A stretch of DNA of 64,000 nt from a virus (IMGVR_UViG_3300046642_001000:103935-167934), one strand, 5' to 3'; positions 18,275 to 37,745 are shown, counted from the stretch's first letter. The notes: generated by a model not told the origin, from the sequence alone. Translations and numbers: made by a program.

Positions 18275-19664
18275 CCAGCTACCGGCCAACGACACCTTCG
18301 GACCGATGGGGCGCTCCTATCAAGAGAAGGTGGTTCAGGCCGTCATCCAGGACCCGCTCTTCGCAGAGCAAGTGATCGACGTCCTGGACCCGAAGTTCTT
18401 CGATCTCAAGTACCTGGAAGAGATCGCCAAGCTGGTCTTCCGTCACCGCCTGGAGTTCAAGACCTTCCCGTCGCCGGACCTCATCGAGATCATGGTGCAG
18501 AAGGAGCTGGACAACGACCTGGTCGCCCAGCAGTGCAAGGAGTTCCTGAAGCGTGCCAAGGAGAACCCGCTCGGCGGGGACATCGGCTACGTCGAAGGAA
18601 CGTCCCTGGACTTCTGCCGTCGTCAGACGCTGAAGGAGGCGATGGTCTGTGCGATCGACAAGATCGAACAGAACGACTACGAGTCGATCTCCACCATCAT
18701 CAAGGACGCCCTCAACAAGGGCGCGACCCGTGACCTCGGCCACGAGTACATGGACGACTCGGGATTCGCGGCCCGCTCCAAGGCGAGCATCCGGAAGCCC
18801 ATCCCGACCGGCTGGCAGATCATCGACAAGGAGCTGAACGGCGGCTGGGAGCGCGGCATCCTGGTGACCTTCATCGCTCCCACCGGCGCCGGCAAGTCCA
18901 TGTTCCTGGTGAACTGCGGGGCGGCCGCGGTGGCGCAGGGGCTCAACGTCCTGTACGTCACCTGCGAAATGGCGGACTACAAGATCGGTCTCCGTTTCGA
19001 CTCCTACTACTCGGGCGTCGCCATCAATGACGTGCCCAACGAGCAGGAGAAGGTGCGGGCGGAAGTCAAGGACAAGGCGAAGGGAGGGCTCTTCATCAAG
19101 GAGTTCCCGACCAAGACGGCCACGGTCCAGACCATCAGGGCGTACATCCAGCGCCTGACGGCCACCAAGAACTTCATCCCGGACATGATCATCATCGACT
19201 ACGCCGACCTCCTCCGTTCGAGCCGCGGGTTCGAGCAGAAGCGGTTCGAGCTCGAGGGCGTGTACGAGGAGCTCCGGGCGATGGCCCAGGAGTTCAAGGT
19301 CGTCCTCATCACGGCGGACCAGACGAACCGCGCGGGTCTCGACATGGAGGTCGTCTCCATCGGTCAGATCGGCGAGGCCTACGCCAAGGCCACCGTGTGC
19401 GACGTCATCATGACGATCAGCCGGCGTACGGAGGACAAGCAGATGAACTGCGGACGCCTCTTCATCGCCAAGTCCCGACTCGGCCGTGACGGCGTGGTCT
19501 ATCCCTTCACGCTCAACACGGCGACGGTCAAGGTCTCGGTGCTCAACCAGGGCGAGGATCCGCTCGCGATCTTCCTGGAGAACAACGACAACCTGAAGAA
19601 GAAGACGGCCGAACGCTTCAAGAAGCTCGGCATGGTCGACAACAAGAAGCCCGACTCCAACTAG
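18267..19664 (+). CDS. dnaB: DnaB-family replicative helicase
   Basis: Walker A IAPTGAGKSMF in a RecA-like C-terminal domain and a DnaB-like N-terminal domain; ATGTCTGA overlap with the FEN stop. Confidence 0.8.
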   Translation: MSDQLPANDTFGPMGRSYQEKVVQAVIQDPLFAEQVIDVLDPKFFDLKYLEEIAKLVFRHRLEFKTFPSPDLIEIMVQKELDNDLVAQQCKEFLKRAKENPLGGDIGYVEGTSLDFCRRQTLKEAMVCAIDKIEQNDYESISTIIKDALNKGATRDLGHEYMDDSGFAARSKASIRKPIPTGWQIIDKELNGGWERGILVTFIAPTGAGKSMFLVNCGAAAVAQGLNVLYVTCEMADYKIGLRFDSYYSGVAINDVPNEQEKVRAEVKDKAKGGLFIKEFPTKTATVQTIRAYIQRLTATKNFIPDMIIIDYADLLRSSRGFEQKRFELEGVYEELRAMAQEFKVVLITADQTNRAGLDMEVVSIGQIGEAYAKATVCDVIMTISRRTEDKQMNCGRLFIAKSRLGRDGVVYPFTLNTATVKVSVLNQGEDPLAIFLENNDNLKKKTAERFKKLGMVDNKKPDSN

Positions 19665-19678
19665 GGAGATCCTCAGAC

Positions 19679-21433
19679 ATGAGCGCTTACTACGAGCCCC
19701 AAGGCTTTGCCTTGGAGATCTATAAGGATCGCTATGCCCTTCACGGGGAGGAGACCTTCCACGAGGGCTGCGACCGGCTCGCCACCGTGGTGGCCGGTGC
19801 CGAGACCAACGGCAACGTAGTCAAGTACCGGGCGGAGTTCTCGGAGCTCCTGAAGCACAACTACTTCATGCCGGGTGGCCGCATCTGGTACGGAGCGGGC
19901 CGTCCCAAGGGGCAGCTCCTCAACTGCTTCGTCATCCCCATCACCGACAGCTCGGAAGGCTGGGGCAAGAACGCCAACGACATGATCGTCATCTCCTCCA
20001 AGGGAGGTGGCATCGGGACGAACTTCTCCCCGGTCAGGCCGAACGGCGCCGACATCGCTGGCCACCGCGGTCAGGCCACGGGAGCCTGCAGCCCGATGGA
20101 AGGGCAGAACGCCTGGGGCAATGTCATCAAGGGCGGGGGCGGTCGACGGGTCGCCCTCATGTTCTGCCTCAACCTGAACCACCCGGACATCCTCGAGTTC
20201 CTCGACAAGAAGCTCGACCTCAAGCAGCTCAACAACGCCAACGTCTCGGTGAACTTTAACGAGGACCCGGAGCTCTTCTTCAAGAAGGTGAAGGCCAAGG
20301 AAGACGTCGAGCTCCGTCACGGCGGCAAGCTCTACGGAAAGATCCCGGCCGACAAGCTCTGGGAGCGCCTGATCTCCAACGCTCTCCACGGCGGTGAGCC
20401 CGGCATCCTCAACGGCTACCTCGCCAACAAGATGAGCAACATCGGCTACTACGCCGAGCTGCTCAGCACCAACCCCTGCGGCGAGATCTGGCTGACGGCC
20501 TACGACTGCTGCTGCCTCGGGTCGATGGTCCTCCCCCGGTTCGTGAAGGACGGGAAGGTGGACTGGGACCTGCTGAAGAAGTCGGTGGCCACCTCGGTCC
20601 GCTTCCTGGACAACGTCCTGACGGTGAACAACTACCCGCTCCAGGAGATCAAGGAGATGTGCTCGAACATCCGGCGCATCGGCCTGGGTGTGCTCGGTCT
20701 CCACGACATGCTCCTCCTCCTCGGGCTGAAGTACGCCTCGGCCCATGGGCTGGAGATGATCGACAAGGTCATGAACTTCATCAAGGTCTCCGCCTACGAG
20801 GCCTCGATCGAGCTGGCCAAGGAGAAGGGACCGTTCCCCGCCTTCGACGCGGAGAAGTACCTGAAGGGCGGCTTCGCCAAGACTCTGAAGCCGAGTCTCC
20901 GCGCTCTCATCCGGGAGCACGGGATCCGGAACTGCGCCCTCCTCACCATCCCGCCAACCGGGACCACGGCCCTGGTCTGCGACTGCTCCTCAGGGATCGA
21001 GCCGCTCTTTGCCCCGGCCCACATCCGGAAGTTCCGGAAGGGCGACCTGTTGGCCCAGGAGATCGTCATCCACCCGCTCTTCAAGCAGTTCGTCGAAGAG
21101 GGGAAGAGCACGAAGCACTTCCAAGGAGCGTATGACCTCAAGCTCCGGGACCACTTCGAGGTGCAGCGGGCCTGTCAGAAGCACATCGACAACGCGGTCA
21201 GCAAGACCATCAACGTCATGCCCGGGACCTCGGCAGAGGAGCTCAGTGACCTCTACATGGAGTACTTCCCGGAGCTCAAGGGCGTGACCATCTACCCCGA
21301 GGGGAGCCGAGAAGACCAGCCCCTCACCCCGCTCTCCATCGAGGAAGCCTTGGCGGCCCTCAAGGGGAAGGGGGACAAGATCCTCATGTCATATTCAAAG
21401 GACGCGTGCAAGGACGGTTCGTGTGACATCTAG
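19679..21433 (+). CDS. nrdJ: ribonucleotide reductase, class II (adenosylcobalamin type)
   Basis: active-site STNPCGEIWL; 584 aa, single chain. Confidence 0.8.
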   Translation: MSAYYEPQGFALEIYKDRYALHGEETFHEGCDRLATVVAGAETNGNVVKYRAEFSELLKHNYFMPGGRIWYGAGRPKGQLLNCFVIPITDSSEGWGKNANDMIVISSKGGGIGTNFSPVRPNGADIAGHRGQATGACSPMEGQNAWGNVIKGGGGRRVALMFCLNLNHPDILEFLDKKLDLKQLNNANVSVNFNEDPELFFKKVKAKEDVELRHGGKLYGKIPADKLWERLISNALHGGEPGILNGYLANKMSNIGYYAELLSTNPCGEIWLTAYDCCCLGSMVLPRFVKDGKVDWDLLKKSVATSVRFLDNVLTVNNYPLQEIKEMCSNIRRIGLGVLGLHDMLLLLGLKYASAHGLEMIDKVMNFIKVSAYEASIELAKEKGPFPAFDAEKYLKGGFAKTLKPSLRALIREHGIRNCALLTIPPTGTTALVCDCSSGIEPLFAPAHIRKFRKGDLLAQEIVIHPLFKQFVEEGKSTKHFQGAYDLKLRDHFEVQRACQKHIDNAVSKTINVMPGTSAEELSDLYMEYFPELKGVTIYPEGSREDQPLTPLSIEEALAALKGKGDKILMSYSKDACKDGSCDI

Positions 21434-21453
21434 CCTGTACTCAGGCAGAAAGT

Positions 21454-21464
21454 CGTGGTATAAT
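21454..21464 (+). promoter_or_regulatory. extended -10 promoter CGTGGTATAAT
   Basis: TGGTATAAT; the annotated ATG lies 10 nt after the hexamer, so the leader is near-absent. Confidence 0.45.
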
Positions 21465-21474
21465 GGATTTCACA

Positions 21475-22452
21475 ATGGCACTCCCGGTACCAGAGAATCT
21501 GGAAGACGCTGCCCTCGTGACCCACAAGGGTTGCATGGACGGCGCGGGATGCGCGATCATGTTCATGTTGGCGGGCGGGAAGCGTGAGAACATCCACTAC
21601 GTCGCCGCCGGCATGGTCGAGAGGTTCGTCAAGAAGGATCCCGTCTTCCAGTCGAACAAGTTCCTGATCTTCGCGGACGTCGGGCTCAACACCCCGAAGT
21701 ACGCCGAGGTCCTCGAGCGTCGTGGCAACCTGGTCCTCATCGACCACCACGACACGTCGCTCCACCTGCTGGGCCGTCACTGGGCGGAGATCGAAGAGAA
21801 GAACCAGCGCTGCGGCACGATGATGCTCAGGGACTACCTGATCAGGATCGACGACGAGAACAAGGTCGGATTCGGGCGGCGGCTCAAGAGCACGAGCTAC
21901 CGGATTTTCGCCGAGTCCATCGACGACCACGACCGCTGGCTACGCCAGAAGCTCCCGTTCTCGGAGGACCTGGCGACCTTCATGGTCTTCGTCGGCCAGC
22001 AGGACTTCATCACCCGCTTCGCCGACCCGAAGGACCGGATCTGTCAGAACATCGCGCTCGGTCGTGGCAAGGTCTACTTCACGCAGTTCGAGGACGACAT
22101 CATCAACATCCTCGACAGGCGTCGAGATGAGGCGATCGAGGAGGCCATGAAGAAGGTCACGGTGAAGGAGATCAAGCTCTCCGACGGGACCCAGGTGATC
22201 GGAGGGTTCGTCGTCACCAACGAGCCCAACATCTCTCTCCTCCTCAACCGGCTCCTGGAAGTCTACCCCCAGGTGCAGATGGCTGTCAGCGTCTGCATCG
22301 AGAAGGGGGCGGTCGGGATCCGCTCACGTGCCGGCGAGCTGGACGTTGGCCGGATAGCCGGCCTACTTGGTGGTGGCGGCCACAAAGGCGCCGCGGGGCA
22401 CAGGCTTCCGCAGGATCTGAGCGAAGTAATCCTGGAGCACATCTATGGCTGA
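21475..22452 (+). CDS. DHH-family phosphoesterase
   Basis: LIDHHDTS (DHH motif) and GGGGHKGAAG (DHHA1 GGGH motif); the ORF-table start at 21463 lies inside the -10, so the second ATG at 21475 is used. Confidence 0.7.
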   Translation: MALPVPENLEDAALVTHKGCMDGAGCAIMFMLAGGKRENIHYVAAGMVERFVKKDPVFQSNKFLIFADVGLNTPKYAEVLERRGNLVLIDHHDTSLHLLGRHWAEIEEKNQRCGTMMLRDYLIRIDDENKVGFGRRLKSTSYRIFAESIDDHDRWLRQKLPFSEDLATFMVFVGQQDFITRFADPKDRICQNIALGRGKVYFTQFEDDIINILDRRRDEAIEEAMKKVTVKEIKLSDGTQVIGGFVVTNEPNISLLLNRLLEVYPQVQMAVSVCIEKGAVGIRSRAGELDVGRIAGLLGGGGHKGAAGHRLPQDLSEVILEHIYG

Positions 22453-23398
22453 TATCCTCGGAGTCTCGTTCGACGACATCTTCGTCAAGCTCCTTCGGAA
22501 GCTGAGCCGGAACCCCGACTTCGTCTGCGCCCCGCGTGGACAGAAGATCAAGGAAGACCTGGCCCTCACGCTCGTCCTGACGGACCCGCGGTCCCGCTTC
22601 ATCCACAACCCGGCCCGGAAGTCGAACTACGGGTTCGCGGCCGGGGAGTTCCTCTGGTACTGGCAGGGTCGCCGGGATCTGGAGATGATGCTCTACTACA
22701 ACCGGCGGATGAAGGACTTCTCGGACGACGGCCACACGCTGAACTCGGCGTACGGCTACCGGCTCCGGGCGGGGTCCGACCTGCTGGACATGGACAGCCA
22801 GTGGAACAACTGCATCGCCACCCTGTCGGGGGACTCGGACAGTCGACGGGCGGTCATGACCATCTTCGCCCCGATCGACGCGGACGTGGCGGTGCACCAG
22901 GGATCGAAGGACGTGCCCTGCACCCTCTCGCTCCAGTTCTTCATCCGTGACGGCGCGCTCCACCTGCACGTCCACATGCGGTCCAACGACGCCATCTGGG
23001 GCCTGACGAATGACCTCTTCAGCTTCACGCTCTTCCAGGAGTGCATGTTCCTGGACCTGAAGCGGCAGAACCCGAAGTTCGCGGACCTGCGCCTCGGCCA
23101 GTACTACCACACGGCCGGCTCGCTCCACCTGTACGAGCGCCACTTCGAGATGGCCGAAGAGGTCATCAAGCTCTACGACGAGGGCTTCAGGTGCTACGAC
23201 GCCATGCCGGCCCTCACCAGCCTCGAGTCTCTGGACAAGCTGGGCTACGACGAGGAAGAGCTTCGCAAGCGTTACATCGACCAGATCCAGCTCTCCAAGT
23301 ACGAGGGCGGGGAGCTGTGGCTGGCCGACGAGTTGAATGTACACCGGCAAAAGAGGGACGCCGAAGAGTCCCTCAAGGGAGACAAGAAAGCAGGCTGA
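22445..23398 (+). CDS. thymidylate synthase (ThyA)-family protein, candidate pyrimidine hydroxymethylase
   Basis: VPCTLSLQFFIRDGALHLHVHMRSNDAIWGLTNDLFSFTLFQ aligns with the ThyA PCH..FQFYV...RS.D...G.PFNI core, but carries Thr where ThyA has His; RRAVMTIF matches the ThyA RR motif. Confidence 0.7.
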   Translation: MADILGVSFDDIFVKLLRKLSRNPDFVCAPRGQKIKEDLALTLVLTDPRSRFIHNPARKSNYGFAAGEFLWYWQGRRDLEMMLYYNRRMKDFSDDGHTLNSAYGYRLRAGSDLLDMDSQWNNCIATLSGDSDSRRAVMTIFAPIDADVAVHQGSKDVPCTLSLQFFIRDGALHLHVHMRSNDAIWGLTNDLFSFTLFQECMFLDLKRQNPKFADLRLGQYYHTAGSLHLYERHFEMAEEVIKLYDEGFRCYDAMPALTSLESLDKLGYDEEELRKRYIDQIQLSKYEGGELWLADELNVHRQKRDAEESLKGDKKAG

Positions 23399-23400
23399 AC

Positions 23401-23880
23401 ATGGGACAGAACATCCGCGATCAGATCAAGGACCTCGAGATCGAGGTCGCCCCGAGCTACCCGCCCAAGGAGTACTCGAGGTTCGACGACTTCACCCGGG
23501 TCACCGACCTGCGACGCGGTCAGGATCTGCTCTACATCGGGTCGAACGCGTACTTCCCCTCGGTGAAGCGCAACGTTCGCACCATCACGACCGTCAAGAA
23601 CAAGCGGGAGCTCGAGAAGCTCCTGTCGGCGGAGCGGGTCTTCGACCGCATCTTCATCGCCCGGGAGAACGTCCTGGACGAGCGGTTGGTCACGGCGGCG
23701 GTGCAGCTCACCGCGGCCAACGGACTGGTGTGCTTCTTCTCGGAAGACGAGGGGCTGCGCGCCGGGTTCCACGAGATCGTCGAGAAGAACTACCCGACGG
23801 CCCAGTCGTGGAACTGCAAGTCCAACGTCGGTCCGCTCGTCATGACCGACGCCAAGGGCAATCCGTCCTACCAGGATTGA
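23401..23880 (+). CDS. hypothetical protein
   Basis: 159-aa ORF immediately after the ThyA-like gene. Confidence 0.5.
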   Translation: MGQNIRDQIKDLEIEVAPSYPPKEYSRFDDFTRVTDLRRGQDLLYIGSNAYFPSVKRNVRTITTVKNKRELEKLLSAERVFDRIFIARENVLDERLVTAAVQLTAANGLVCFFSEDEGLRAGFHEIVEKNYPTAQSWNCKSNVGPLVMTDAKGNPSYQD

Positions 23881-23929
23881 TTGTCCCTGTGACCTCCGCT
23901 CCCATATTTAATCAGCGGAGGATCACAGA

Positions 23930-24307
23930 ATGAGCGCACTTCCCCCCGACATGTTGTACGACGTCTTCAAGCGTCAAGAGGAGTTCATGGAACTCCTGCG
24001 CGTGAACGACAAGCTTCCCGAGTGGCCGGTGGACCTCACCACCAAGCCCGGCCAACGCCTCATCAAGGAGACGGCCTTCAACCTCTCCGACGAACTCCAC
24101 GAGGCGATGGCCACCCTCAAGAACAAGATGCACCGGCTGACCGACGATCGCACCCTCGACTTCGGTCACTACAAGGAAGAGCTCGGGGACGCCTTCGCGT
24201 TCTTCCTCGAGATCTGTCTCCTCAGCGGGATCGGGGCGGACGACCTCTACGAGGAGTACTGCCGCAAGAACAAGACCGTCAAGGAAAGACTGGCCAAGGG
24301 CTACTGA
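23930..24307 (+). CDS. MazG-like nucleoside triphosphate pyrophosphohydrolase
   Basis: EELGDAFAFFLEICLL EExGD motif in an all-alpha context. Confidence 0.6.
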   Translation: MSALPPDMLYDVFKRQEEFMELLRVNDKLPEWPVDLTTKPGQRLIKETAFNLSDELHEAMATLKNKMHRLTDDRTLDFGHYKEELGDAFAFFLEICLLSGIGADDLYEEYCRKNKTVKERLAKGY

Positions 24308-24525
24308 TGGGCCGGTTGCCGGGAGACATCTGCGCCAGGTGCCTGACCCGTCAGGGGACGGAGATCTGGACGGAGGGTACGATGGCCTACATCCACGGCG
24401 CGTACCAGATGTACTGCAAGGTCTGCGTCCTGACCTGCCAGATCCAGCACGCCAAGGAACGGGCGGCGGCGATCCCGGAGATGGAGCGGGAACTGGAAGA
24501 GCTGAAGAAGGTGGTGGATGGATAG
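24307..24525 (+). CDS. small Cys-rich protein
   Basis: 72-aa ORF with CxxC ... C...C; ATGA overlap. Confidence 0.4.
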   Translation: MGRLPGDICARCLTRQGTEIWTEGTMAYIHGAYQMYCKVCVLTCQIQHAKERAAAIPEMERELEELKKVVDG

Positions 24526-24784
24526 AGGGTACGAGTGCCACCTGACGTTCGACGCTGAACAGGCGAAGCTCGCCGAGGCGTCGTGTCCCTACGGCTGGAA
24601 GTTCAGCCGGATCGAGGGCGATCCCGTCCTCGGCCAACGACTCTACTGCTACTGGACGGCGTGGCACGGGTCGCAGGGAGTGATCGAAGACGAGATGCGC
24701 GGCGCCATCAGACTGGCCAATCGCAACGGTCTCCCCCTGGTCAGGGCGAAGATCGAACACATCATCTACGACCAGAGGTACTAA
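24518..24784 (+). CDS. hypothetical protein
   Basis: 88-aa ORF. Confidence 0.4.
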   Translation: MDRGYECHLTFDAEQAKLAEASCPYGWKFSRIEGDPVLGQRLYCYWTAWHGSQGVIEDEMRGAIRLANRNGLPLVRAKIEHIIYDQRY

Positions 24785-25338
24785 TGAGCGTAGTCATCAA
24801 TCTCTACGGTGGACCGGGCACCGGCAAGTCCACCTCGGCGGCCTACCTCTTCTACCTGCTGAAGTCGCAGGGGAAGAACGCCGAGCTCGTGCGGGAGTAC
24901 GTCAAGGACTGGGCGTGGGAGGGTCGCACGATCTCCACCTACGACCAGATCTACCTGCTCGGCAAGCAGGTCCGTCGGGAGAGCTTCCTCTACGGGAAGG
25001 TGGACATGATCGTCACCGACGCCCCGATCATGCTGGGCATCTACTACGCCAGCAAGTTCTCTCCCCTCTCGGTCAGTGAGGGAGTCCGGGCCATGACCCT
25101 CGCCTACTACCGGCAGGCGGCCGAGGACGGCCACCAGCACCACCACGTCTTCCTGGAGCGCACCAAGCCGTACAAGCAGGAGGGTCGGTTCCAGAACGAG
25201 GAGCAGGCCAAGCAGATCGACAACGGCGTCTATGGGATGCTGTCCGACCTGCGGATCCCGCTTGTCCGATGCGGGACGCAAAGAGAAGATCTAGACGAGC
25301 TACTTACCACTCTGAAGGTAAACAACCCCAAGGCTTAG
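24784..25338 (+). CDS. P-loop nucleotide or nucleoside kinase-like protein
   Basis: Walker A YGGPGTGKST near the N-terminus; 184 aa. Confidence 0.6.
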   Translation: MSVVINLYGGPGTGKSTSAAYLFYLLKSQGKNAELVREYVKDWAWEGRTISTYDQIYLLGKQVRRESFLYGKVDMIVTDAPIMLGIYYASKFSPLSVSEGVRAMTLAYYRQAAEDGHQHHHVFLERTKPYKQEGRFQNEEQAKQIDNGVYGMLSDLRIPLVRCGTQREDLDELLTTLKVNNPKA

Positions 25339-25354
25339 CCTGGAGACTCTCGCG

Positions 25355-26419
25355 ATGAAGCGCACGACAAAGCTCAGGATCTTCTACAAGTCCAAGTCCT
25401 CAGGACAGGGTCACAATCCCTACCACACGGGCGGACTGGCGGCGAACGCGCTGCACACCGTCGGCGTCCTCCGTCGGGAGGGTGTAGACGTAGACCTCGT
25501 CGCCGTGTCCAGCTTCGACGAGCTGGCGGCCTACCTTCGGGCCAACCCGGACATCACCCACGCCGTCATCGAGGCGGTCTGGGTCAAGGCGTCCGAGGTC
25601 GTCCTCCTGTCCCACGCCCACCCCCACCTCAAGATCGTGGTGCGGGCGCACTCCAAGATCGGGTTCCTCCAGGTCGAGCCCGAGGCCATCCCGGTCATCC
25701 GGGCCCTCATCGACCTCGGGGAAGAGTACCCGAACATCTCTTTCTCCAGCAACAACCAGGAGTTCTGCAACTCTCTCGGGGAAGTCTACGGCGACGTGCT
25801 CTACCTGCCGAACCTCTTCGACTGGGACGGGTCTCCCCCGAAGAAGCACAGCCACGATCGCATCCTCAGGCTGGCTTCTTTCGGTGCCACCCGGCTCCTG
25901 AAGCTCCACTCTTCCGCGGCACTGGCGGCCCTTCAGGTCGCCGTCCGCCTCGACCGGCAGCTGGAGTTCTACGTCAATACCGACAATACCCCGGGAGGTC
26001 ACAGCGTCCGGAACACGATGCGGAACCTCTTCGCTGGTCTCCCCTGGGCGAAGCTGATCGAGGTGAGCTGGCAGGACGCGGCCACCTTCCGGGAGACCAT
26101 CGCTGAGATGGACCTGGTCTTCCAGCTGTCCGCCACCGAGACCTTCTGCCTGGTGGCCGCGGACGCCGTGTCCAGCGGGGTGCCAGTGATCGTCGGAGAG
26201 GCCGTCAGCTGGGTGCCGGAAAGGTACCAGTCCAACATCGACGACACCTCGGAGGCGGCAACCGAGGCCATCCGCGCACTGGAGAGCAGCCACAAGACGG
26301 TCAAGGTGCAGCAGGAAGCCCTGAACGACTTCGTGGAGTCTTCGACTCGGATCTGGCGCACGTTCCTCGGGATGCCGAGCGGACGGGAAAGCCGTAAGAA
26401 CCTCTGGTGGATTTTCTAA
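25355..26419 (+). CDS. GT-B fold glycosyltransferase (GT1/GT4-like)
   Basis: C-terminal SATETFCLVAADAVSSGVPVIVGE resembles the GT4 E..G..EAMA.G.PVI donor-binding block. Confidence 0.55.
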   Translation: MKRTTKLRIFYKSKSSGQGHNPYHTGGLAANALHTVGVLRREGVDVDLVAVSSFDELAAYLRANPDITHAVIEAVWVKASEVVLLSHAHPHLKIVVRAHSKIGFLQVEPEAIPVIRALIDLGEEYPNISFSSNNQEFCNSLGEVYGDVLYLPNLFDWDGSPPKKHSHDRILRLASFGATRLLKLHSSAALAALQVAVRLDRQLEFYVNTDNTPGGHSVRNTMRNLFAGLPWAKLIEVSWQDAATFRETIAEMDLVFQLSATETFCLVAADAVSSGVPVIVGEAVSWVPERYQSNIDDTSEAATEAIRALESSHKTVKVQQEALNDFVESSTRIWRTFLGMPSGRESRKNLWWIF

Positions 26420-26432
26420 AAAGGAGCAGCAC

Positions 26433-26738
26433 ATGGGATTCAATCTCGAACTGAACGGCAACCGCGTCGCCATCGACCTCGACGAGGTGGGTGACCAGAC
26501 GGAGAGCGGCCTCTACGTCCCGCAGACCGTCTCTCAGGAGGGCCCGAAGAAGGGCAAGGTGGTCGCGGTCAGCGAGACCTACCTCGTGAACGGGGCGACG
26601 GTGACCAGCAAGTTCAAGCCCGGAGACGCGGTCCTCATCGACGCCCTCGGCGGCATGAAGGCGACCATCAACCGTCGTGAGTACCTCGTCGTGCGGAACG
26701 AGGACATCCTCGGCCGCTACCTGCCGGAGGAAGCGTGA
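26433..26738 (+). CDS. groES: GroES-like co-chaperonin
   Basis: about 100 aa; the GKVVAVSE ... GDAVLIDALGG ... EYLVVRNEDILG pattern matches Cpn10. Confidence 0.65.
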   Translation: MGFNLELNGNRVAIDLDEVGDQTESGLYVPQTVSQEGPKKGKVVAVSETYLVNGATVTSKFKPGDAVLIDALGGMKATINRREYLVVRNEDILGRYLPEEA

Positions 26739-26935
26739 GCGCCTTCAAGCACCGCGGGGAAGACATCTCGGTCGACGAGGCTCCCCGCTTCAAGGAAGAA
26801 GGCTACACCGTCGACGGGAATGGCAAGGTGGTCTACAAGGCGAGCAGCCGGGTAGGCACGGCGTTCAACACGAGACCGGACAAGGCGGTCGACGACGTCA
26901 AGGAGATGATCGACAGAAACCTGGACGCGAAGTAG
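26735..26935 (+). CDS. small hypothetical protein
   Basis: 66-aa ORF. Confidence 0.4.
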   Translation: MSAFKHRGEDISVDEAPRFKEEGYTVDGNGKVVYKASSRVGTAFNTRPDKAVDDVKEMIDRNLDAK

Positions 26936-26939
26936 CAGC

Positions 26940-26950
26940 TGTGATATAAT
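26940..26950 (+). promoter_or_regulatory. extended -10 promoter TGTGATATAAT
   Basis: lies 6 nt upstream of the dnaE ATG, implying a leaderless transcript. Confidence 0.45.
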
Positions 26951-26956
26951 ACTCCT

Positions 26957-29900
26957 ATGCTCAAGGAGTTCGCCTCCTTTCACAACCATTCTCACTTCTC
27001 GGTCTTCGACGGCCTCTCCCTCCCGGAAGAGCTGCTGAAGGCCGCGAAGGAGAAGGGTCTCAAGTCCATCGCCCTCACCGATCACGGTGTGACACACGGT
27101 CACGCCGACTGGTACCTGATGGGGAAGAAGATGGGCGTGAAGACCGTCTTCGGCGTGGAAGCCTACGTCATCCACGACCTCAAGGAGTGGAAGGCGCTGA
27201 AGGGGGAGATCGACTCCCAGAAGCGGAAGGGCGCCAAGAAGGAAGACAACGAGTACACCGCCGACGGTGACGTCGTCGATCCCAAGGCCCTTCGACGCAA
27301 GGGCCACCTCGTCATCCTCGCCAGCAACCGGGAGGGTCTCAGCAACCTCTACCAGCTCACGTTCAAGGCCCACAAGTTTGGCTTCTACCAGAAGCCACGC
27401 ATGGATAAGGTGATGCTCCAGGAGCACGCCAAGGGCCTGATCGCGACCTCGGCCTGCATGGGCGGCGTCATCTCCAAGCGGCTGTGGGACCTGAAGGAAG
27501 GGTCCTGCACCTGGGAGGACGTCAAGAACGAGGTCCTCGACTACGACCGGATCTTCGGCCGTGGCCGGTTCTACCTCGAGCTCCAGTTCAACGAGATGGA
27601 CAAGGAGCAGAACTACATCAACACCTCCCTCGTCCAGCTCCACAAGGAGACGGGCGTCCCGCTGACGGTGACCACGGACTCACACTACGCCACCCAGGCG
27701 GAGTGGGAGCCACGAGAGCTTCTCCACCTCATGGGCTGGAGCAAGAAGACGGTCGCCGACCTGCCGGAACAGAAGCTCGACTCACAGGTCAAGCAGCTCT
27801 TTGTGAAGTCTCCCGAGGAGATGTGGCTCACCTACGAGAAGCTGGCCGGTCACTGCATCGATCCGAAGACCGCGATGGAGGCGTTCCAGGGGACGCTCCT
27901 CATCGACAGCCTCATCGAGGACTTCGAGCCCGACACTCACCAGCGCCTGCCCACCCTCCCCTTCGCCAATCCCTACAAGGAGATGGGCATGCGGGCCATC
28001 GCCGGCCTGAAGAAGCTGGGACTGGCGGAGAACGAGATCTACAAGGACCGCCTCCTCTTCGAGCTCGGGGTCATCAAGCAGAAGGGGATCTCGAACTACT
28101 TCCTCGTCTGCCAGCAGATCATCGAGGAAGCCAAGAAGTACATGCTTGTCGGTCCAGGCCGCGGCTCAGCCGCCGGCTCCCTCGTGTGCTGGTGCCTGGG
28201 CATCACGGACCTCGACCCGATCAAGAGAGACCTGCTCTTCGAACGCTTCCTCGACATCGACCGCGCCGAGCTCCCCGACATCGACACGGACTTCGAGGAT
28301 CCCAAGGCCGCCAAGCGGATGCTTCAGAAGATGTTCGGGGACGACAACGTCGCCTCCCTCAGCTCGTACGGCACGTTCCAGATCAAGGGACTGCTGAAGG
28401 ACCTGGGGCGTGTGTACGGCGTCGACCACAACCTCATCAACAAGCTCAACCGGCAGATCGACAAGGAGCTCAAGGTCCTCTACGTGGACCAGGACAAGAG
28501 CACCCTCGTGGTCAAGCTGGACGACATCATCCGGGTCAGCCCGTCGTTCAACACCTTCGTGGAAGAGAACCCCGACCTGGGCAGCAAGATCAAGACTCTC
28601 TACGGCCGGATCAGGCACGTCACCCGGCACGCGGCTGGTGTCATCATCGGCGACAACCTGCCGGCGGAGACCAGCTGCTTCGTCGCCAAGGCCAAGGGCA
28701 AGAAGACCAAGGACAACGAAGACGGGGAGGACGACACACTGGCCGAAGAAGGCGAGATGGTCGTCCAGTGCTCGTTCACCGAGGGCATCGTCAACAAGAA
28801 CCTCTCGGCCATGGGCTTCGTCAAGATGGACATCCTCGGGCTGGCCAACCTGCGCGTCATCCGGTGCGCCCTGGAACACATCAGCTCACGGACCGGCAAG
28901 AGCTTCGACGAACTCTACGAGGGACTGCGTTCGCACAACATGGACCTCGATGACATCAAGGTCATGAAGAACATCTTCTGGGACGGGAACTTCGGAGCCA
29001 TCTTCCAGTTCTCGAACCCGGGCATCCGGGCGCTGGCCAAGCGGGTCAAGCCGGACAGCTTCGTCGACGTCTCGGCCATCTGCTCTCTCTACCGCCCCGG
29101 CCCGCTCAAGGGTGGGTATGACAAGGTCTACGTCACGGCGAAGCACGGGGAGATCGCCTCCCTCGGTCACCCGGTGCTGGACGAGATCCTCGGTTCGACC
29201 AAGGGCTGCCTCGTCTTCCAGGAGCAGCTCATGAAGGTCTGCTCCGTCTTCGGCAAGATGACGGGCAAGGAAGTCAACCGCGTCCGCAAGGTCCTGCTGA
29301 AGAAGGACAAGAGCAAGACGGAAGAGTTCTTGAAGCAGGAGAACGACGTCCTCTACGCCAGCTTCCACAAGGGCTGCATGGAGCACGGCTTCCCCGAAGA
29401 CAAGACCCTGAAGCTCTGGGAAGACATCAAGGCCTTCGGCGGCTACGCCTTCAACAAGAGCCACTCGGATGCCTACTCCCTCACCACGATGCAGACGGCG
29501 CACCTGGCGACCTACTACCCGCTGGAGTTCTACACGGCGGCCCTGACGAAGGCGCAGGCCAACGCGATCCAGACTCTGGTGGCAGACATCCAGAAGACGG
29601 GGATCAAGATCCTCCCGGTGGACATCAACAAGAGCCGGGCGGCCAACATCATCGAGGGCCTGTGCATCCGGCTGGCCCTCGGACGTGTCCTCGGCGTGGG
29701 TCCGTCCGTGATCGAAAAGATCGTGGCCAACCAACCATACACCTCGTTCCAGGACTTCCTCGACAGGTCCAAGGCCAACAAGACGGCGGTCGAGGCGCTC
29801 ATCCAGGTGGGAGCCTTCGGGTCTCTCCCCGGCTGCGGCAACATCAAGCGGCTCTGGGAGGCATACCGGAAGTGGACCGACAACGTCCTCGTCACCCTCG

Positions 29901-30484
29901 ACGGGGAGCTGAAGATCGTCGACGAGAAGGTGTCAGGCGGTCCGAAGCTGGCCCGAGTCCAGTCGGTCAAGGGCCGTCCACGCTGGGACGAGCTCTACTC
30001 CCGGATCATGACGGATGAGAAGATCGAAGACTTCAAGCTCCACGAGAAGGTCTTCCTCGAGAACGAGCTCATGGAGTTCAGCCTCGCGGGTACTCCCTTC
30101 GAGATCCTCGACCGGAAGAAGAAGATCACCGCCATGTTCGATGGGGTGGTCTCCACGATGGAGGAGTTCCTCGGCGGCGAGGAAGAGATGACGATGCTCC
30201 CGGTCGTGGTGAAGGAGTGGAAGGAGAAGCCCCAGCGCAACGGGCAGATGTTCGCCTTCATCAAGTTCGCCACGGAAGACGGGGAGACGTTCGACGTCCC
30301 GGCCTTCGCGAACATGTGGAAGTGGATCTCACCCGTCATCCGCAAAGGCTCGGTCTACATCGCCACCTTCAACAGAGACATCGACGATGACCCCGAGCGC
30401 CTGAAGCTCGGCCGGCCGGGGTGGGCGCAGAGCCAGCATTCGACGATGCAGGCCTTCATCAATGTGGACGACATAAGTCTCTAG
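26957..30484 (+). CDS. dnaE: DNA polymerase III alpha subunit (DnaE-type)
   Basis: N-terminal PHP domain HNHSHFSVFDG ... ALTDHG; 1175 aa. Confidence 0.85.
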   Translation: MLKEFASFHNHSHFSVFDGLSLPEELLKAAKEKGLKSIALTDHGVTHGHADWYLMGKKMGVKTVFGVEAYVIHDLKEWKALKGEIDSQKRKGAKKEDNEYTADGDVVDPKALRRKGHLVILASNREGLSNLYQLTFKAHKFGFYQKPRMDKVMLQEHAKGLIATSACMGGVISKRLWDLKEGSCTWEDVKNEVLDYDRIFGRGRFYLELQFNEMDKEQNYINTSLVQLHKETGVPLTVTTDSHYATQAEWEPRELLHLMGWSKKTVADLPEQKLDSQVKQLFVKSPEEMWLTYEKLAGHCIDPKTAMEAFQGTLLIDSLIEDFEPDTHQRLPTLPFANPYKEMGMRAIAGLKKLGLAENEIYKDRLLFELGVIKQKGISNYFLVCQQIIEEAKKYMLVGPGRGSAAGSLVCWCLGITDLDPIKRDLLFERFLDIDRAELPDIDTDFEDPKAAKRMLQKMFGDDNVASLSSYGTFQIKGLLKDLGRVYGVDHNLINKLNRQIDKELKVLYVDQDKSTLVVKLDDIIRVSPSFNTFVEENPDLGSKIKTLYGRIRHVTRHAAGVIIGDNLPAETSCFVAKAKGKKTKDNEDGEDDTLAEEGEMVVQCSFTEGIVNKNLSAMGFVKMDILGLANLRVIRCALEHISSRTGKSFDELYEGLRSHNMDLDDIKVMKNIFWDGNFGAIFQFSNPGIRALAKRVKPDSFVDVSAICSLYRPGPLKGGYDKVYVTAKHGEIASLGHPVLDEILGSTKGCLVFQEQLMKVCSVFGKMTGKEVNRVRKVLLKKDKSKTEEFLKQENDVLYASFHKGCMEHGFPEDKTLKLWEDIKAFGGYAFNKSHSDAYSLTTMQTAHLATYYPLEFYTAALTKAQANAIQTLVADIQKTGIKILPVDINKSRAANIIEGLCIRLALGRVLGVGPSVIEKIVANQPYTSFQDFLDRSKANKTAVEALIQVGAFGSLPGCGNIKRLWEAYRKWTDNVLVTLDGELKIVDEKVSGGPKLARVQSVKGRPRWDELYSRIMTDEKIEDFKLHEKVFLENELMEFSLAGTPFEILDRKKKITAMFDGVVSTMEEFLGGEEEMTMLPVVVKEWKEKPQRNGQMFAFIKFATEDGETFDVPAFANMWKWISPVIRKGSVYIATFNRDIDDDPERLKLGRPGWAQSQHSTMQAFINVDDISL

Positions 30485-30496
30485 GGAGAAAACACC

Positions 30497-30793
30497 ATGA
30501 AGATCTTCATCGCACTCCTCGCCTCGATCCTCGCCGTGAGCGGCGTCACCCTCAAGCTCAAGCCGAAGGAAGAGCCGACGATCATCTCGGAGAAGCAGGT
30601 CGCCTCCTGCTCCCAGTTCGTGATCGAGAACCGCGTCCCGGCCAAGGTCACTCTCACCTTCAGCTGTGGTGCCGACGTCGATGCCCCCGAGCTGGACATG
30701 GACCCGCACACCCGCCTTCAGGTGGACATCTGCGACCCTCGGGAGTACGCCTCCGCGCCTCACTGTTTCATCATGACCTGGTCGAGGAAGTAG
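30497..30793 (+). CDS. small secreted protein
   Basis: signal peptide MKIFIALLASILAVSG; 98 aa with four Cys. Confidence 0.5.
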   Translation: MKIFIALLASILAVSGVTLKLKPKEEPTIISEKQVASCSQFVIENRVPAKVTLTFSCGADVDAPELDMDPHTRLQVDICDPREYASAPHCFIMTWSRK

Positions 30794-31096
30794 ATGACCA
30801 AGGACAACAACGGCCCGTACAGCATCGGGTCGACGTTCTGGCCTGGGCTCTCGAAGCTCGTCGAGGAGTGCGGCGAGGTCGTCCAGGTGGTGGGCAAGTT
30901 GCTTGGCACCGGGGGAGAGACCAAGCACTGGAACGTCCCCGACCTCAAACGCGCCCTAGAGGAGGAGATCGCCGACGTGATGGCGGCCTGCTCTTTCGTG
31001 ATCGAGGAGTGCCAGCTGGACGCGGGGTTCGTGTACACCCGCTACCAGATGAAGAAGGAACGCTTCAAAGAATGGCACAACGGCAGCAAACTGTGA
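30794..31096 (+). CDS. MazG-like NTP pyrophosphohydrolase, second paralogue
   Basis: LVEECGEVVQ and LEEEIADVMA motifs. Confidence 0.6.
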   Translation: MTKDNNGPYSIGSTFWPGLSKLVEECGEVVQVVGKLLGTGGETKHWNVPDLKRALEEEIADVMAACSFVIEECQLDAGFVYTRYQMKKERFKEWHNGSKL

Positions 31097-31102
31097 TACA
31101 AT
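31092..31102 (+). promoter_or_regulatory. extended -10 promoter TGTGATACAAT with the upstream gene's stop codon embedded
   Basis: the TGA of the MazG-like gene supplies the TG-n; a GGAGG Shine-Dalgarno-containing leader follows. Confidence 0.4.
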
Positions 31103-31121
31103 AACAATCCTGGAGGCAACA

Positions 31122-32951: not shown

Positions 32952-32960
32952 GGAGCCAAC

Positions 32961-33185
32961 ATGGCCAAGATCAAGATCACCTGGATGAGTGACGGAGCAG
33001 GCGTCGATAGCATCCACGAGAACGGTCCCAAGATGGCCAAGGACAGTTATCTTGGCCACATCACCCGCATCGAGGACGAGTGGTTCTTCGTCCAGGCGGG
33101 AGTCCAGAAGCCGCACGGTCCCTACGGTTCGATGGCGGAAGTTCGCCGAGCAGCTCTCAAGATCGTCGATGGGGAGTACATCTAG
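32961..33185 (+). CDS. small hypothetical protein
   Basis: 74-aa ORF. Confidence 0.45.
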   Translation: MAKIKITWMSDGAGVDSIHENGPKMAKDSYLGHITRIEDEWFFVQAGVQKPHGPYGSMAEVRRAALKIVDGEYI

Positions 33186-33187
33186 GT

Positions 33188-34321: not shown

Positions 34322-34322
34322 C

Positions 34323-34841: not shown

Positions 34842-34846
34842 GAGAC

Positions 34847-35540: not shown

Positions 35541-35546
35541 AGGTCT

Positions 35547-36758: not shown

Positions 36759-36759
36759 C

Positions 36760-37700: not shown

Positions 37701-37745
37701 AACCGGCTGCAGCTTCCTATTTAGACCTGAGGAGCATCGCAAGCC

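Follow-up and report, generated by a model that had tools for sequence, protein, structure and literature searches.

A predicted dCMP hydroxymethylase alongside ThyX points to a T4-like 5-hydroxymethylcytosine pathway in a family of environmental phages

Why would a phage that encodes the flavin-dependent thymidylate synthase ThyX carry a second gene of the thymidylate synthase fold? The question is raised by a stretch of viral DNA of 64,000 nucleotides (IMGVR_UViG_3300046642_001000:103935-167934; the whole stretch analysed is called the window here), in which an open reading frame with an ATG start at 22445..23398 encodes a protein of 317 aa. All genes discussed below lie on the plus strand. 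A sequence-only reading of the window had described this gene as a divergent ThyA-family paralog, coexisting with ThyX and a dCMP deaminase and flanked by MazG-like, kinase and glycosyltransferase genes, and had proposed that it encodes a pyrimidine hydroxymethylase acting on dCMP or dUMP. Our analysis supports this proposal and narrows it: the gene probably encodes a folate-dependent dCMP hydroxymethylase (5-hydroxymethyl-dCMP synthase), the functional equivalent of T4 gp42 in a pathway leading to 5-hydroxymethylcytosine (5hmC).

Family membership and a separate route to dTMP

The protein is a member of the thymidylate synthase superfamily, since its score against the Pfam family Thymidylat_synt (PF00303; 74.4 bits, E=1.1e-20, residues 58-242) exceeds the curated cut-off of 24.3 bits and the catalytic residues are present. 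The motif around the nucleophile is P158-C159-T160 where canonical ThyA has P-C-H, and both the motif and the exact coordinates of the reading frame agree with the sequence-only reading. Several PHROG "thymidylate synthase" families match the protein (E down to 1.2e-52), as do 115 PDB chains of the family at E<0.01. The best solved relatives among the PDB sequences are MilA, a CMP 5-hydroxymethylase (1.1e-41), and then the T4 dCMP hydroxymethylase (6.8e-15), with thymidylate synthases reaching 1.6e-12 or weaker; identity is 42% to MilA (about 216 core columns) versus about 27% to T4 gp42. The GC3 of the reading frame is 0.92, and its neighbors are alike in this respect.

Judged by its equivalog scores and its changed residues, the protein does not belong with bona fide ThyA enzymes. 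None of the seven NCBIfam ThyA equivalog cut-offs was reached, all being missed by a wide margin (the top model, NF002497, gave 59.4 bits against a cut-off of 327). The equivalents of E. coli N177, L143, W80/W83 and H147 are D190, D156, M89/F92 and T160, Q165 is likewise replaced, and the C-terminal lid of thymidylate synthases is absent, its place being taken by a C-terminal extension of about 75 residues. The sequence-only reading had set one pattern against its own proposal, namely a grouping with genuine ThyA enzymes and an unbroken set of residues for binding dUMP and folate; the replacement of N177, L143, H147 and W80 is a different pattern.

A complete route to dTMP is encoded elsewhere in the window, in agreement with the sequence-only reading. 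It consists of a dCMP deaminase, converting dCMP to dUMP (37281..37700; Pfam dCMP_cyt_deam_1, 1.8e-22; HAE and PCxxC zinc motifs), and of ThyX (43162..44028; Pfam Thy1, 6.1e-23; RHRTVS motif). A dCMP deaminase gene also lies near the ThyA-like gene in the relatives L003 and L006, the latter likewise carrying ThyX. By these matches and motifs ThyX is the actual dTMP synthase of the phage, fed by the deaminase, and because dTMP is made separately in this way, the ThyA-fold gene can coexist with ThyX.

Homologs are numerous, with 1,041 found at E<=1e-10 in a collection clustered at 90%, many of them on contigs of 100-220 kb and at least one from farmland soil. The close relatives are metagenomic phage contigs of about 200 kb that share the same replication block around the ThyA-like gene, and in five of eight tested relatives of about 500 aa a Thymidylate_kin domain is fused to the ThyA-like protein. 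The best matches among deposited phage genomes are gp319 of Bacillus phage G (35.7% identity) and gp10 of Ralstonia phage RsoM2USA (34.0%). Homologs of the protein are labeled "thymidylate synthase" by the JGI and NCBI pipelines.

Active-site residues and competing chemistries

Residues E68, Y103, C159, R179, D182, H228 and Y230 are the equivalents of E. coli Glu58, Tyr94, Cys146, Arg166, Asp169, His207 and Tyr209, and C159, E68, Y103, R179 and H228 are invariant (alignment A1; 161-sequence alignment). The protein and T4 gp42 have the same residue at all 17 active-site positions compared, which in E. coli numbering are E58, Ser at 92, Y94, R126, R127, Asp at 143, C146, Thr at 147, Met at 165, R166, S167, Asn at 168, D169, G173, Asp at 177, H207 and Y209. 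At a core of seven positions (R126, L143, C146, H147, S167, D169 and N177) the 120 closest homologs match the query without exception, and the combined signature R-D-C-T-S-D-D occurs in 130 of 150 representatives obtained by clustering the homologs at 50% identity.

Published residue rules allow these positions to be read in terms of substrate and product: N177D indicates dCMP, L143D/E a hydroxymethyl product and D169N a 5-hydroxy-dCMP synthase, the rule for position 143 being termed a correlation by its own authors (Lee et al. 2026, PMC13326640). Across metaviromes, no residues of ThyA homologs are as strongly associated with cytosine-modified DNA as those at positions 177 and 147, and the homologs so associated co-occur with NTP pyrophosphohydrolase and dCMP deaminase (PMC8670742). 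The equivalent of E. coli N177 is Asp190 here (Asp179 in T4), and Asp is found in all 120 close homologs, in every one of the 149 representatives (of 150) aligned at this position, and in T4 gp42 and MilA. E. coli ThyA and the enzymes of SPO1 (gp29), SP10, phiMAM1 and PA_LZ03 (ViI-like and PaMx11-like types included) have Asn, the residue expected of a dUMP hydroxymethylase. With Asp in the query and in every homolog examined, the predicted substrate resolves to dCMP rather than dUMP, that is, to a cytosine-specific and not a uracil-specific enzyme. Arg134 and Ser180 form the pair typical of deoxyribonucleotide enzymes (Arg123 and Ser169 in T4) and indicate a deoxyribo substrate, unlike in MilA, where Lys133 and Ala176 confer ribo preference, R/S gives deoxy preference and the A176S/K133R mutant has lost CMP activity (PMC5175136). 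Arg135 is counted with this pair among the deoxynucleotide residues of the query.

For the product, the hydroxymethylation signature proposed for the T4 enzyme is an Asp three residues before the Cys together with S-x-Y, and the T4 mutants D145N, Y96F, S94N, C148S and D179N are all inactive (PMC6400193). Both elements of this water-activation set are present in the query, as D156-V-P-C159, with D156 at the L143 equivalent, and as S101-A-Y103. The alignment controls (RB69 gp48 and the SPO1 gp29, SP10, ViI-like and PaMx11-like enzymes, a characterized XP12-type dCMP methyltransferase being left out) behaved as expected, with Asn at 169 in RB69 gp48 and Asn at 177 in the four uracil-type enzymes. 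In neighbor-joining (NJ) trees the query fell among the D177-type sequences (MilA, phage G) and did not enter the clade of uracil hydroxymethylases. However, this placement should be read with caution, as the deep nodes reached at most 21% bootstrap, the split between D177 and N177 types being recovered in 21 of 100 replicates with the deep branches unsupported; the four uracil enzymes formed a clade of their own, with the query outside, in 75 of 100.

Other chemistries have to be weighed against this assignment. A flavin-dependent 5-hydroxy-dCMP synthase of the RB69 gp48/DLP3 gp80/RL38JI gp216 type, the 5-hydroxycytosine then being glycosylated at C5-O, would share N177D and an acidic residue at 143 with the query. 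Phages with such enzymes follow the same cluster logic of a ThyA homolog, a Tmk/YorR-like kinase and GT-B enzymes; one of the kinases described below is homologous to gp45 of RB69, a phage of this kind, and the window holds a sugar-mutase-like gene, compared with a UDP-galactopyranose mutase in RL38JI. We nevertheless consider this improbable, as the diagnostic D169N is missing: the folate-type Asp is kept as D182 in the query and as Asp in 120/120 close homologs, Asn being found in none of these and in none of the 150 representatives. Nowhere among the positions compared does the query depart from T4 gp42, and the aligned RB69 gp48 shows N186 at the 169 equivalent, V at 173 and F at 209. It is similarly doubtful that the protein is a dCMP methyltransferase making 5-methyl-dCMP, so that 5mC fully replaces cytosine as it does in Xanthomonas phage XP12, with glycosyltransferases unrelated to DNA. 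The retained Asp182 is compatible with this, and N177D alone is said to switch a canonical thymidylate synthase to dCMP methylation in work cited in PMC8670742. Against it stand Asp156 at the L143 equivalent, where leucine marks methyl-forming enzymes and where water activation by the T4 enzyme requires Asp, the Ser-x-Tyr geometry, Met89 at the W80 equivalent and the extension in place of the lid. The closest characterized relatives, moreover, are all hydroxymethylases, and glycosyltransferases co-occur with the ThyA-like gene across the family.

The closeness of MilA, the nearest solved homolog, could instead suggest a MilA/BcmA-like hydroxymethylase acting on the ribonucleotide CMP and supplying hmCMP for a small molecule or RNA. 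This is very unlikely given the Arg134/Ser180 pair, shared with the T4 enzyme and thymidylate synthase, the presence of the ribo-type K/A pair in only 4 of 150 representatives, and the location of the gene among phage replication and dNTP genes (RNR, dCMP deaminase, ThyX and polymerase); the genes scanned showed no sign of a MilB-like N-glycosidase. The dUMP option left by the sequence-only reading, an enzyme of the SPO1 gp29/ViI/M6 type feeding thymidine hypermodification, finds some backing in the 30-34% identity to the SPO1 gp29 and SP10 dUMP hydroxymethylases and in their comparable C-terminal extension. It is harder still to sustain, with Asp190 opposed to Asn in all four uracil-type enzymes, C-T opposed to their C-N after the nucleophile, the query outside their clade, a complete dTMP route that argues against replacement of T, and no 5-HMUDK-type DNA kinase seen in the genes scanned. 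A normal thymidylate synthase, duplicating the dTMP route, would fit the Pfam family and the label given by the pipelines; with the best equivalog score so far below its cut-off, N177, L143, H147, Q165 and W80 all replaced and dTMP already supplied by ThyX, we give it next to no credence.

Gene neighborhood and a putative 5hmC pathway

The dCMP hydroxymethylase assignment, which draws on residue signatures from a few characterized enzymes, is in keeping with the genes around it. Immediately upstream is a DHH/DHHA1-type phosphoesterase (21463..22452; PHROG DHH phosphoesterase 6.4e-23; Pfam DHHA1 1.8e-5 and DHH 4.2e-4, each slightly under its cut-off), which ends 8 nt inside the ThyA-like gene. 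It occupies this position in all relatives examined (L001, L003, L005 and L006) and may, by inference only, supply dNMPs from oligonucleotides. Two nucleotides past the ThyA-like stop begins a conserved, family-specific gene (23401..23880) whose 159-aa product has a class I methyltransferase-like (Rossmann) fold. The MazG-like, kinase and glycosyltransferase flanks named in the sequence-only reading were found downstream of this gene; that reading was silent on the DHH gene, on the 159-aa gene and on a second gene set about 10 kb downstream.

The MazG-like flank is an all-alpha NTP pyrophosphohydrolase (dUTPase_2/MazG-like; 23930..24307) with a match at the Pfam threshold (dUTPase_2, 23.0 bits, cut-off 22.9) and a match to PHROG 12184, nucleotide pyrophosphohydrolase (4.9e-13). 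Over its last 44 aa it shows 39% identity to the C-terminal end of the T4 gp56 dCTPase (pairwise E=9e-6), and in L005 and L006/L007 the ThyA-like gene is closely followed by a gene with a weak or faint dUTPase_2 match. These 44 residues and the threshold match make it a weak candidate for a dCTPase that removes dCTP and supplies dCMP. Next comes a P-loop NTPase/kinase-like protein (24784..25338; Pfam AAA_28 8.6e-10; PHROG 2107 "thymidylate kinase" 4.4e-10), which matched no PDB sequence and had no BLASTP similarity to RB69 gp45; it has the same position in L002, the closest relative compared, and is absent there in L003, L005 and L006. Beside it, a GT4-family (GT-B) glycosyltransferase of the "conflict systems" type (25355..26419; Pfam GT4-conflict 2.5e-6, 27.2 bits, cut-off 26; weak PDB matches to BshA-type glycosyltransferases) is a lineage-specific addition. 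Among 50,697 phage records its homologs occur only in the Ralstonia jumbo phages phiRSL1 and RsoM2USA, and RsoM2USA also has a D177-type ThyA homolog.

The second gene set opens with a canonical MazG-type NTP pyrophosphohydrolase (30794..31096; Pfam MazG 24.9 bits, cut-off 22; PHROG 25433 3.9e-21; PHROG 4856 NTP-PPase 3.3e-11), an alternative candidate for removing dCTP or dUTP. A GT75/"reversibly glycosylated polypeptide"-like protein of the UDP-arabinopyranose-mutase family with a DDD motif (33188..34321; Pfam RGP 3.6e-35; PDB 8cid UDP-arabinopyranose mutase, 1.7e-14) is a candidate NDP-sugar mutase or glycosyltransferase. It had a single match among the 50,697 phage records; its ortholog in L005 is 60% identical, and RGP genes directly follow PolIII-alpha in L003 and L005. 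The adjoining Tmk/YorR-like nucleotide kinase (34323..34841; P-loop FEGPDGVGKTT; PHROG 761 "thymidylate kinase" 2.2e-13) resembles the RB69 gp45 nucleotide kinase (30% identity, E=8e-8), phage G gp315 (37% identity) and, at 0.006, YorR in the PDB, and is a candidate hm-dCMP kinase. The gp1-type dNMP kinase is the one used experimentally for RB69 and T4 (PMC13326640); no clear kinase of this type was found in the genes scanned, the sole such PHROG match being that of the Tmk/YorR-like kinase to phrog_139 (E=5e-4). Lastly, a GT-B glycosyltransferase (35547..36758), conserved across the phage family and without a Pfam match, resembles the T4 beta- and alpha-glucosyltransferases in fold, is found together with the ThyA-like gene on 14 contigs or more, and is a candidate DNA 5hmC glycosyltransferase.

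From the observed family membership, active-site signature, gene content and conservation, we infer the chemistry, the kinase and glycosyltransferase substrates and the amount of DNA modified. By analogy with T4 gp42 and MilA, Cys159 would attack C6 of dCMP, with Asp190 recognizing the cytosine ring and protonating it; C5 would receive the methylene of 5,10-CH2-THF, and water activated by Asp156 and placed by Ser101 and Tyr103 would add to the exocyclic methylene, with no hydride transfer and hence 5-hydroxymethyl-dCMP as the product. Going by gene content, one of the two pyrophosphohydrolases (23930..24307 or 30794..31096) would convert dCTP to dCMP, depleting the competing nucleotide and feeding the hydroxymethylase. 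The Tmk/YorR-like kinase, perhaps with the kinase-like protein at 24784..25338, could then form hm-dCDP, host NDP kinase hm-dCTP, and the phage PolIII-alpha replicase could incorporate it. After replication, 5hmC in the DNA would be glycosylated by at least one GT-B enzyme, the one at 35547..36758 representing the conserved core and the GT4 enzyme the lineage-specific addition, and the GT75 mutase-like protein may provide an unusual NDP-sugar.

The most likely outcome is a phage DNA in which cytosine is replaced by sugar-decorated 5hmC. Hypermodification is a prediction that the context supports well; the substrates of the three glycosyltransferase-type genes are putative, and their targets could be other than DNA. 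More tentatively, and with less confidence than we place in the hydroxymethylase itself, the conserved core of this phage family (hydroxymethylase, translationally coupled methyltransferase-fold protein, GT75-like protein, Tmk-like kinase and GT-B enzyme) may make an undescribed cytosine hypermodification, with the second kinase and the GT4 enzyme as lineage extras. The 5hmC might carry a furanose or another unusual sugar, or an oligosaccharide, or its hydroxymethyl group might be capped, by O-methylation or in some other way; GT75 enzymes and a minimal methyltransferase-fold partner would then be new components of phage DNA-modification pathways.

Glycosylation of 5hmC in phage DNA is a known anti-restriction strategy. 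If our reading is true, abundant and so far uncultured environmental phages of about 200 kb replace cytosine with 5hmC derivatives, which would affect their sequencing and cloning, as modified DNA resists many enzymes and is under-represented. It would also bear on the evasion of type I-III restriction-modification and of Cas9 and Cas12, and on the triggering of type IV systems such as GmrSD and McrBC, and it would offer new hydroxymethylases and DNA glycosyltransferases for 5hmC labeling in biotechnology. Metagenomic ThyA paralogs are uniformly called "thymidylate synthase" in annotation pipelines; the residue rules at E. coli positions 143, 147, 169 and 177 can give their product class.

Comparison with known systems

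The T4 hmC pathway comprises gp42 (dCMP hydroxymethylase, EC 2.1.2.8; PDB 1B5E, 6A9A), the gp56 dCTPase, the gp1 dNMP kinase, cd, td and the alpha- and beta-glucosyltransferases. Residues common to the ThyA-like protein and gp42 include the Cys nucleophile, the Asp that reads cytosine, the Asp and Ser-x-Tyr of water activation, the folate Asp and the Arg/Arg/Ser set for phosphate and deoxyribose; unlike gp42 (246 aa, no extension), the ThyA-like protein has the C-terminal extension. The logic of the two pathways agrees as well, each having a dCMP deaminase, a dTMP synthase apart from the hydroxymethylase, a nucleotide kinase, a GT-B enzyme and a pyrophosphohydrolase, that of the window ending in a gp56-like C-terminus, but the partners are non-orthologous: ThyX stands for Td, a Tmk/YorR-like kinase for gp1 and PolIII-alpha for the family-B polymerase. 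The methyltransferase-fold partner, the GT75-like protein and the GT4 enzyme go beyond the T4 pathway, and the phage lies outside the Straboviridae (no DNA match). We suggest that the lineage is new and its pathway probably T4-like, with glycosylated 5hmC; as the logic of the pathway is already known from T4, the step forward in concept is a modest one.

MilA, from the mildiomycin pathway of Streptomyces rimofaciens (PDB 5B6D, 5JNH), has in common with the query the C-T motif, Asp at the 143 and 177 equivalents, a similar length and a C-terminal domain, yet it serves bacterial antibiotic biosynthesis, whereas the query sits in a phage DNA-precursor module. The genes for RB69 gp48, DLP3 gp80 and RL38JI gp216 (Lee et al., NAR 2026, PMC13326640) are likewise clustered with a Tmk/YorR-like kinase and GT-B enzymes, and RL38JI too has an NDP-sugar-mutase-type gene nearby; unlike RB69 gp48, the query keeps Asp182 and is predicted to be folate-dependent, with a hydroxymethyl and not a hydroxy product. 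Like the query, the SPO1 gp29 and SP10 enzymes end in a long helical extension and have Asp at the 143 equivalent, but they are uracil-specific and replace T, not C. The uncharacterized jumbo-phage homologs, phage G gp319 and RsoM2USA gp10, have C-T and Asp at the 143, 169 and 177 equivalents, as in the query, and a gene annotated as alpha-glucosyltransferase lies near gp319, together with those for a "thymidylate kinase" and a dCMP deaminase, although identity is low and the gene order differs from that of the phage described here.

Identity and phylogenetic placement of the ThyA-like gene

The ThyA-like ORF (22445..23398, +) encodes a protein of 317 aa, with an ATG start and a GC3 of 0.92 as in its neighbours. 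It matches Pfam Thymidylat_synt with 74.4 bits (cut-off 24.3) as well as four PHROG "thymidylate synthase" families (best 1.2e-52), and its catalytic motif is P158-C159-T160 versus P-C-H, as described in the sequence-only reading, which had pointed to a divergent ThyA-fold ORF with PCT for PCH. The other genes named there were likewise recovered: ThyX at 43162..44028 (Thy1 match 6.1e-23, RHRTVS motif), a dCMP deaminase at 37281..37700 (profile match 1.8e-22, motifs HAE and PCxxC), and the flanking MazG/dUTPase_2-like (23930..24307), P-loop kinase-like (24784..25338) and GT4 glycosyltransferase (25355..26419) genes. Identification of the ThyA-like protein as a thymidylate synthase (TS) was rejected, the highest-scoring NCBIfam ThyA equivalog reaching 59 bits where 327 are required. 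Among solved structures, the CMP 5-hydroxymethylase MilA was the best match by far (1.1e-41), followed by T4 dCMP hydroxymethylase (6.8e-15), with bona fide thymidylate synthases at 1.6e-12 or weaker. Among deposited phage genomes, the closest proteins were the uncharacterised gp319 of Bacillus phage G (35.7% identity) and a homologue in Ralstonia phage RsoM2USA (34%, also uncharacterised); SPO1 and SP10 dUMP hydroxymethylases (30-35%) and gp42 of the T-even type (~30%) came next.

To place the protein, an NJ tree was calculated from 226-248 core columns with 100 bootstraps. The query falls among sequences with Asp at position 177 (E. coli ThyA numbering), near MilA and phage G. In this tree, the check proposed in the earlier reading, the query lies outside the uracil-hydroxymethylase clade (bootstrap 75/100); the deep nodes are poorly supported (≤21%), with 21/100 for the D177/N177 split and 15/100 for T4 with RB69. 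Assignment was therefore based on the active-site signatures.

Active-site signature and substrate prediction

Diagnostic columns were chosen from the literature and read from an alignment with E. coli ThyA, the MilA core, T4 gp42, RB69 gp48, phage G gp319, RsoM2USA gp10 and four uracil enzymes (SPO1 gp29, SP10 dUMP hydroxymethylase, the phiMAM1 ViI-like and the PA_LZ03 PaMx11-like enzymes). At position 177 Asn selects dUMP and Asp selects dCMP, at position 143 Leu correlates with methyl products and Asp/Glu with hydroxymethyl, and the change D169N is diagnostic of 5-hydroxy-dCMP synthases, a flavin-dependent class described only recently (Lee et al. 2026, PMC13326640). The substrate water of T4 dCH is activated by Asp145, which precedes Cys148 by three residues and acts jointly with Ser94 and Tyr96; the mutants D145N, Y96F, S94N, C148S and D179N are inactive (PMC6400193). 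The ribonucleotide preference of MilA derives from Lys133 and Ala176, where deoxy-specific enzymes have Arg and Ser (PMC5175136).

The query and T4 gp42 share the same residue at each of the 17 active-site positions aligned (E68, S101, Y103, R134, R135, D156, C159, T160, M178, R179, S180, N181, D182, G186, D190, H228 and Y230). The controls behaved as published: Asn occupies the 169 equivalent in RB69 gp48 and position 177 in E. coli ThyA and the four uracil enzymes, and MilA has Lys and Ala at the ribo-preference positions. From this identity and these controls, the predicted reaction is dCMP + CH2-THF + H2O -> 5-hydroxymethyl-dCMP + THF, in which the call of hydroxymethyl over methyl is a prediction drawn solely from the L143 and Ser-x-Tyr rules. 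The pyrimidine hydroxymethylase proposed earlier is thereby supported and sharpened, the choice between dCMP and dUMP that had been left open resolving to dCMP. The residue rules used here are already published.

The signature is conserved well beyond the query. In a 90%-clustered protein collection, 1,041 proteins matched at E<=1e-10; all of them are metagenomic, and many come from contigs of 100-219 kb. Among 1.84 billion 50%-identity representatives, 7,800 matched at E<=1e-3 and 420 at the stricter threshold of E<=1e-30. Seven core positions were scored (R126, L143, C146, H147, S167, D169 and N177), at each of which the 120 closest homologues (120/120) keep the residue of the query. In the best 150 of the 50%-identity representatives, the combined signature R-D-C-T-S-D-D occurs in 130 and the MilA-type K/A pair in four. 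Five of eight ThyA-like relatives of ~500 aa tested carry a C-terminal thymidylate-kinase domain; these natural ThyA-like/Tmk-like fusions (P0163, P0168, P0172, P0174 and P0189, all 50%-identity representatives) have the query's signature at the seven core positions, with the exception of P0163, which has Ala at the S167 equivalent. Such a fusion couples the product to immediate phosphorylation, and so places the chemistry at the mononucleotide level.

Several other activities have to be weighed against a dCMP hydroxymethylase. The most interesting alternative is a 5-hydroxy-dCMP synthase, as the cluster layout of ThyA homologue, Tmk-like kinase and GT-B enzyme is that of RB69, DLP3 and RL38JI; however, the diagnostic D169N is missing from the query and from all homologues examined, Asn at the 169 equivalent being found in none of the 150 best representatives. 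Asp190 excludes both a dUMP hydroxymethylase and a true TS. A dCMP methyltransferase making 5mC is argued against by Asp156 and Ser-x-Tyr, and by the lack of both a Trp80 equivalent and a TS-type C-terminal lid, while the Arg/Ser pair, together with the location of the gene within a dNTP module, argues against a CMP hydroxymethylase.

Genomic neighbourhood and relatives

The window has ~62% GC and very high GC3, with nearly all genes on the + strand. A near-identity DNA search with 21400..26500 gave no match among 50,697 phage records, that is, no sequenced close relative. At the protein level, relatives (52-96% identity) are encoded on metagenomic contigs, the longest of 219 kb, which have the same replication block. 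This block comprises genes for a 5'-3' exonuclease, DnaB, ribonucleotide reductase and a DHH phosphoesterase, followed by the ThyA-like gene, a 141-159-aa gene, a dUTPase_2-like gene (recognised in the metagenomic loci L005 and L006/L007), GroES and PolIII-alpha. A dCMP deaminase gene is found near the ThyA-like gene in L003 and L006, and ThyX and rIIB-like genes in L006. Recent horizontal acquisition of the ThyA-like gene was rejected, since its GC and GC3 are those of its neighbours and synteny is kept in relatives down to 52-63% identity. The L006 contig (GCA_054637615.1, JBTSRE010000006.1, 197 kb) was deposited within an Acidiferrobacterales MAG and carries rIIB-like, DnaB, RNR, ThyA-like, GroES, ThyX and other phage genes in window order; the binning of a large phage genome with a bacterial MAG is the probable explanation.

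Stop of the DHH gene and start of the ThyA-like gene overlap by 8 nt, and the next gene (23401..23880), which encodes a conserved 159-aa protein of methyltransferase-like fold, starts 2 nt past the ThyA-like stop, a spacing that suggests co-translation; a promoter/terminator scan of 19000..38000 defined no operon boundary around the ThyA-like gene. The 159-aa protein, apparently co-translated with the putative hydroxymethylase, has 23 homologues, all inside this phage group and none with a Pfam domain, and might be an enzyme modifying the hydroxymethyl group or nucleotide, or else a non-catalytic partner. Downstream, the MazG/dUTPase_2-like pyrophosphohydrolase (23930..24307, +) is a candidate for dCTP removal, its last 44 aa being 39% identical to the T4 gp56 C-terminus; a second MazG (30794..31096) is an alternative candidate. 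Directly upstream of the start codon of the former lies an inverted repeat, CCTCCGCT...AGCGGAGG (23895..23925, +), with a GGAGG Shine-Dalgarno within its 3' arm, possibly a hairpin that controls translation or else what is left of a terminator.

The P-loop kinase-like gene (kinase 1, 24784..25338) and the GT4 gene (25355..26419) occur as a pair at this position only in L002, the closest relative with DNA, and are absent there from L003, L005 and L006; BLASTP shows no similarity of kinase 1 to gp45, the nucleotide kinase of RB69, and PDB has no sequence match for it. GroES (26433..26738, +; Cpn10, 6.8e-17) is phage-encoded and keeps its place in every relative, between the nucleotide-modification genes and the full-length DnaE-type PolIII-alpha (26957..30484, +; 1175 aa), which is ~29% identical to its mycobacteriophage and Bacillus jumbo phage counterparts. 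The window has a second DNA polymerase gene, a family-A-like ORF (1395..3074, +) matching PHROG 17 (6.7e-39) with its C-terminal half only. The replication region also holds a single ORF of 2301 aa (5616..12521, +) whose GC3 of 0.90 is typical of coding, and between the second MazG and GT75 genes lies an SPFH/Band 7 gene (31122..32951, +; 609 aa, domain match 2.2e-29), unusual in a phage replication module. A SpoU-family RNA 2'-O-methyltransferase gene (54710..55300, +; 6.5e-14) is located in the downstream part of the window.

Just after PolIII-alpha, a further set is conserved family-wide: a GT75/RGP-like protein, a Tmk/YorR-like kinase and a 403-aa protein. The UDP-arabinopyranose-mutase-like GT75 protein (33188..34321, +; Pfam RGP 3.6e-35, DDD motif) matches the UDP-arabinopyranose mutase 8cid in PDB at 1.7e-14 and is 60% identical to its L005 orthologue. 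Sequenced phages very rarely have such a protein: 50,697 phage records gave a single homologue, in the 595-kb uncultured phage LR756511. Literature searches found no paper that links GT75 ("reversibly glycosylated") proteins to DNA modification in phages, and none that pairs a pyrimidine hydroxymethylase with a glycosyltransferase. The Tmk/YorR-like kinase (kinase 2, 34323..34841) has 30% identity (E=8e-8) to gp45 of RB69, a "nucleotide kinase", and also matches phage G gp315 and YorR. The 403-aa GT-B candidate (35547..36758) has no Pfam or PHROG match; at least 14 contigs of identical size are common to the GT-B and ThyA-like match lists, so that homologues of the two proteins co-occur on the same contigs.

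A proposed 5hmC pathway

What the data show directly is family membership, residue identity and the co-occurrence of genes; from these we infer each enzymatic step of the following scheme. The ThyA-like protein is predicted to be a T4-gp42-type dCMP hydroxymethylase starting a 5hmC DNA-modification pathway, the principle of which is textbook. One of the two MazG-like proteins would remove dCTP and supply dCMP, which would be hydroxymethylated by the ThyA-like enzyme; the product would be phosphorylated by the Tmk-like kinase(s) and incorporated by the phage PolIII-alpha. After replication, glycosylation by GT-B enzyme(s) would follow, possibly with the GT75 protein providing an unusual NDP-sugar, and the pathway is probably a glycosylated one. 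The dCMP deaminase and ThyX would supply dTMP, explaining the coexistence of two "thymidylate synthase" genes. It is a tentative suggestion, which we consider rather doubtful, that the conserved methyltransferase-fold and GT75 components give rise to an as yet undescribed modification. The lineage of ~200-kb phages with this type of enzyme is new and environmentally widespread.

In phage G (NC_023719 227526-240419), the D177-type ThyA homologue gp319 is annotated "thymidylate synthase". Its neighbours include gp313, annotated as an alpha-glucosyltransferase, gp315, a "thymidylate kinase", and gp317, a dCMP deaminase, so glycosylated 5hmC may be a product of phage G as well.

The gene set of the window follows the same logic as the T4 hmC pathway, with parts that are largely non-orthologous: the dCMP deaminase and ThyX would be the counterpart of T4 cd and td for dTMP, and the UDP-galactopyranose mutase of phage RL38JI would be an analogue for the sugar-supply role proposed for the GT75 protein. 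The gene association of the proposed pathway is also that observed on cytosine-modified metavirome contigs, where genes for a dCMP deaminase and an NTP pyrophosphohydrolase accompany a ThyA homologue that has Asp177 and a changed residue 147 (PMC8670742).
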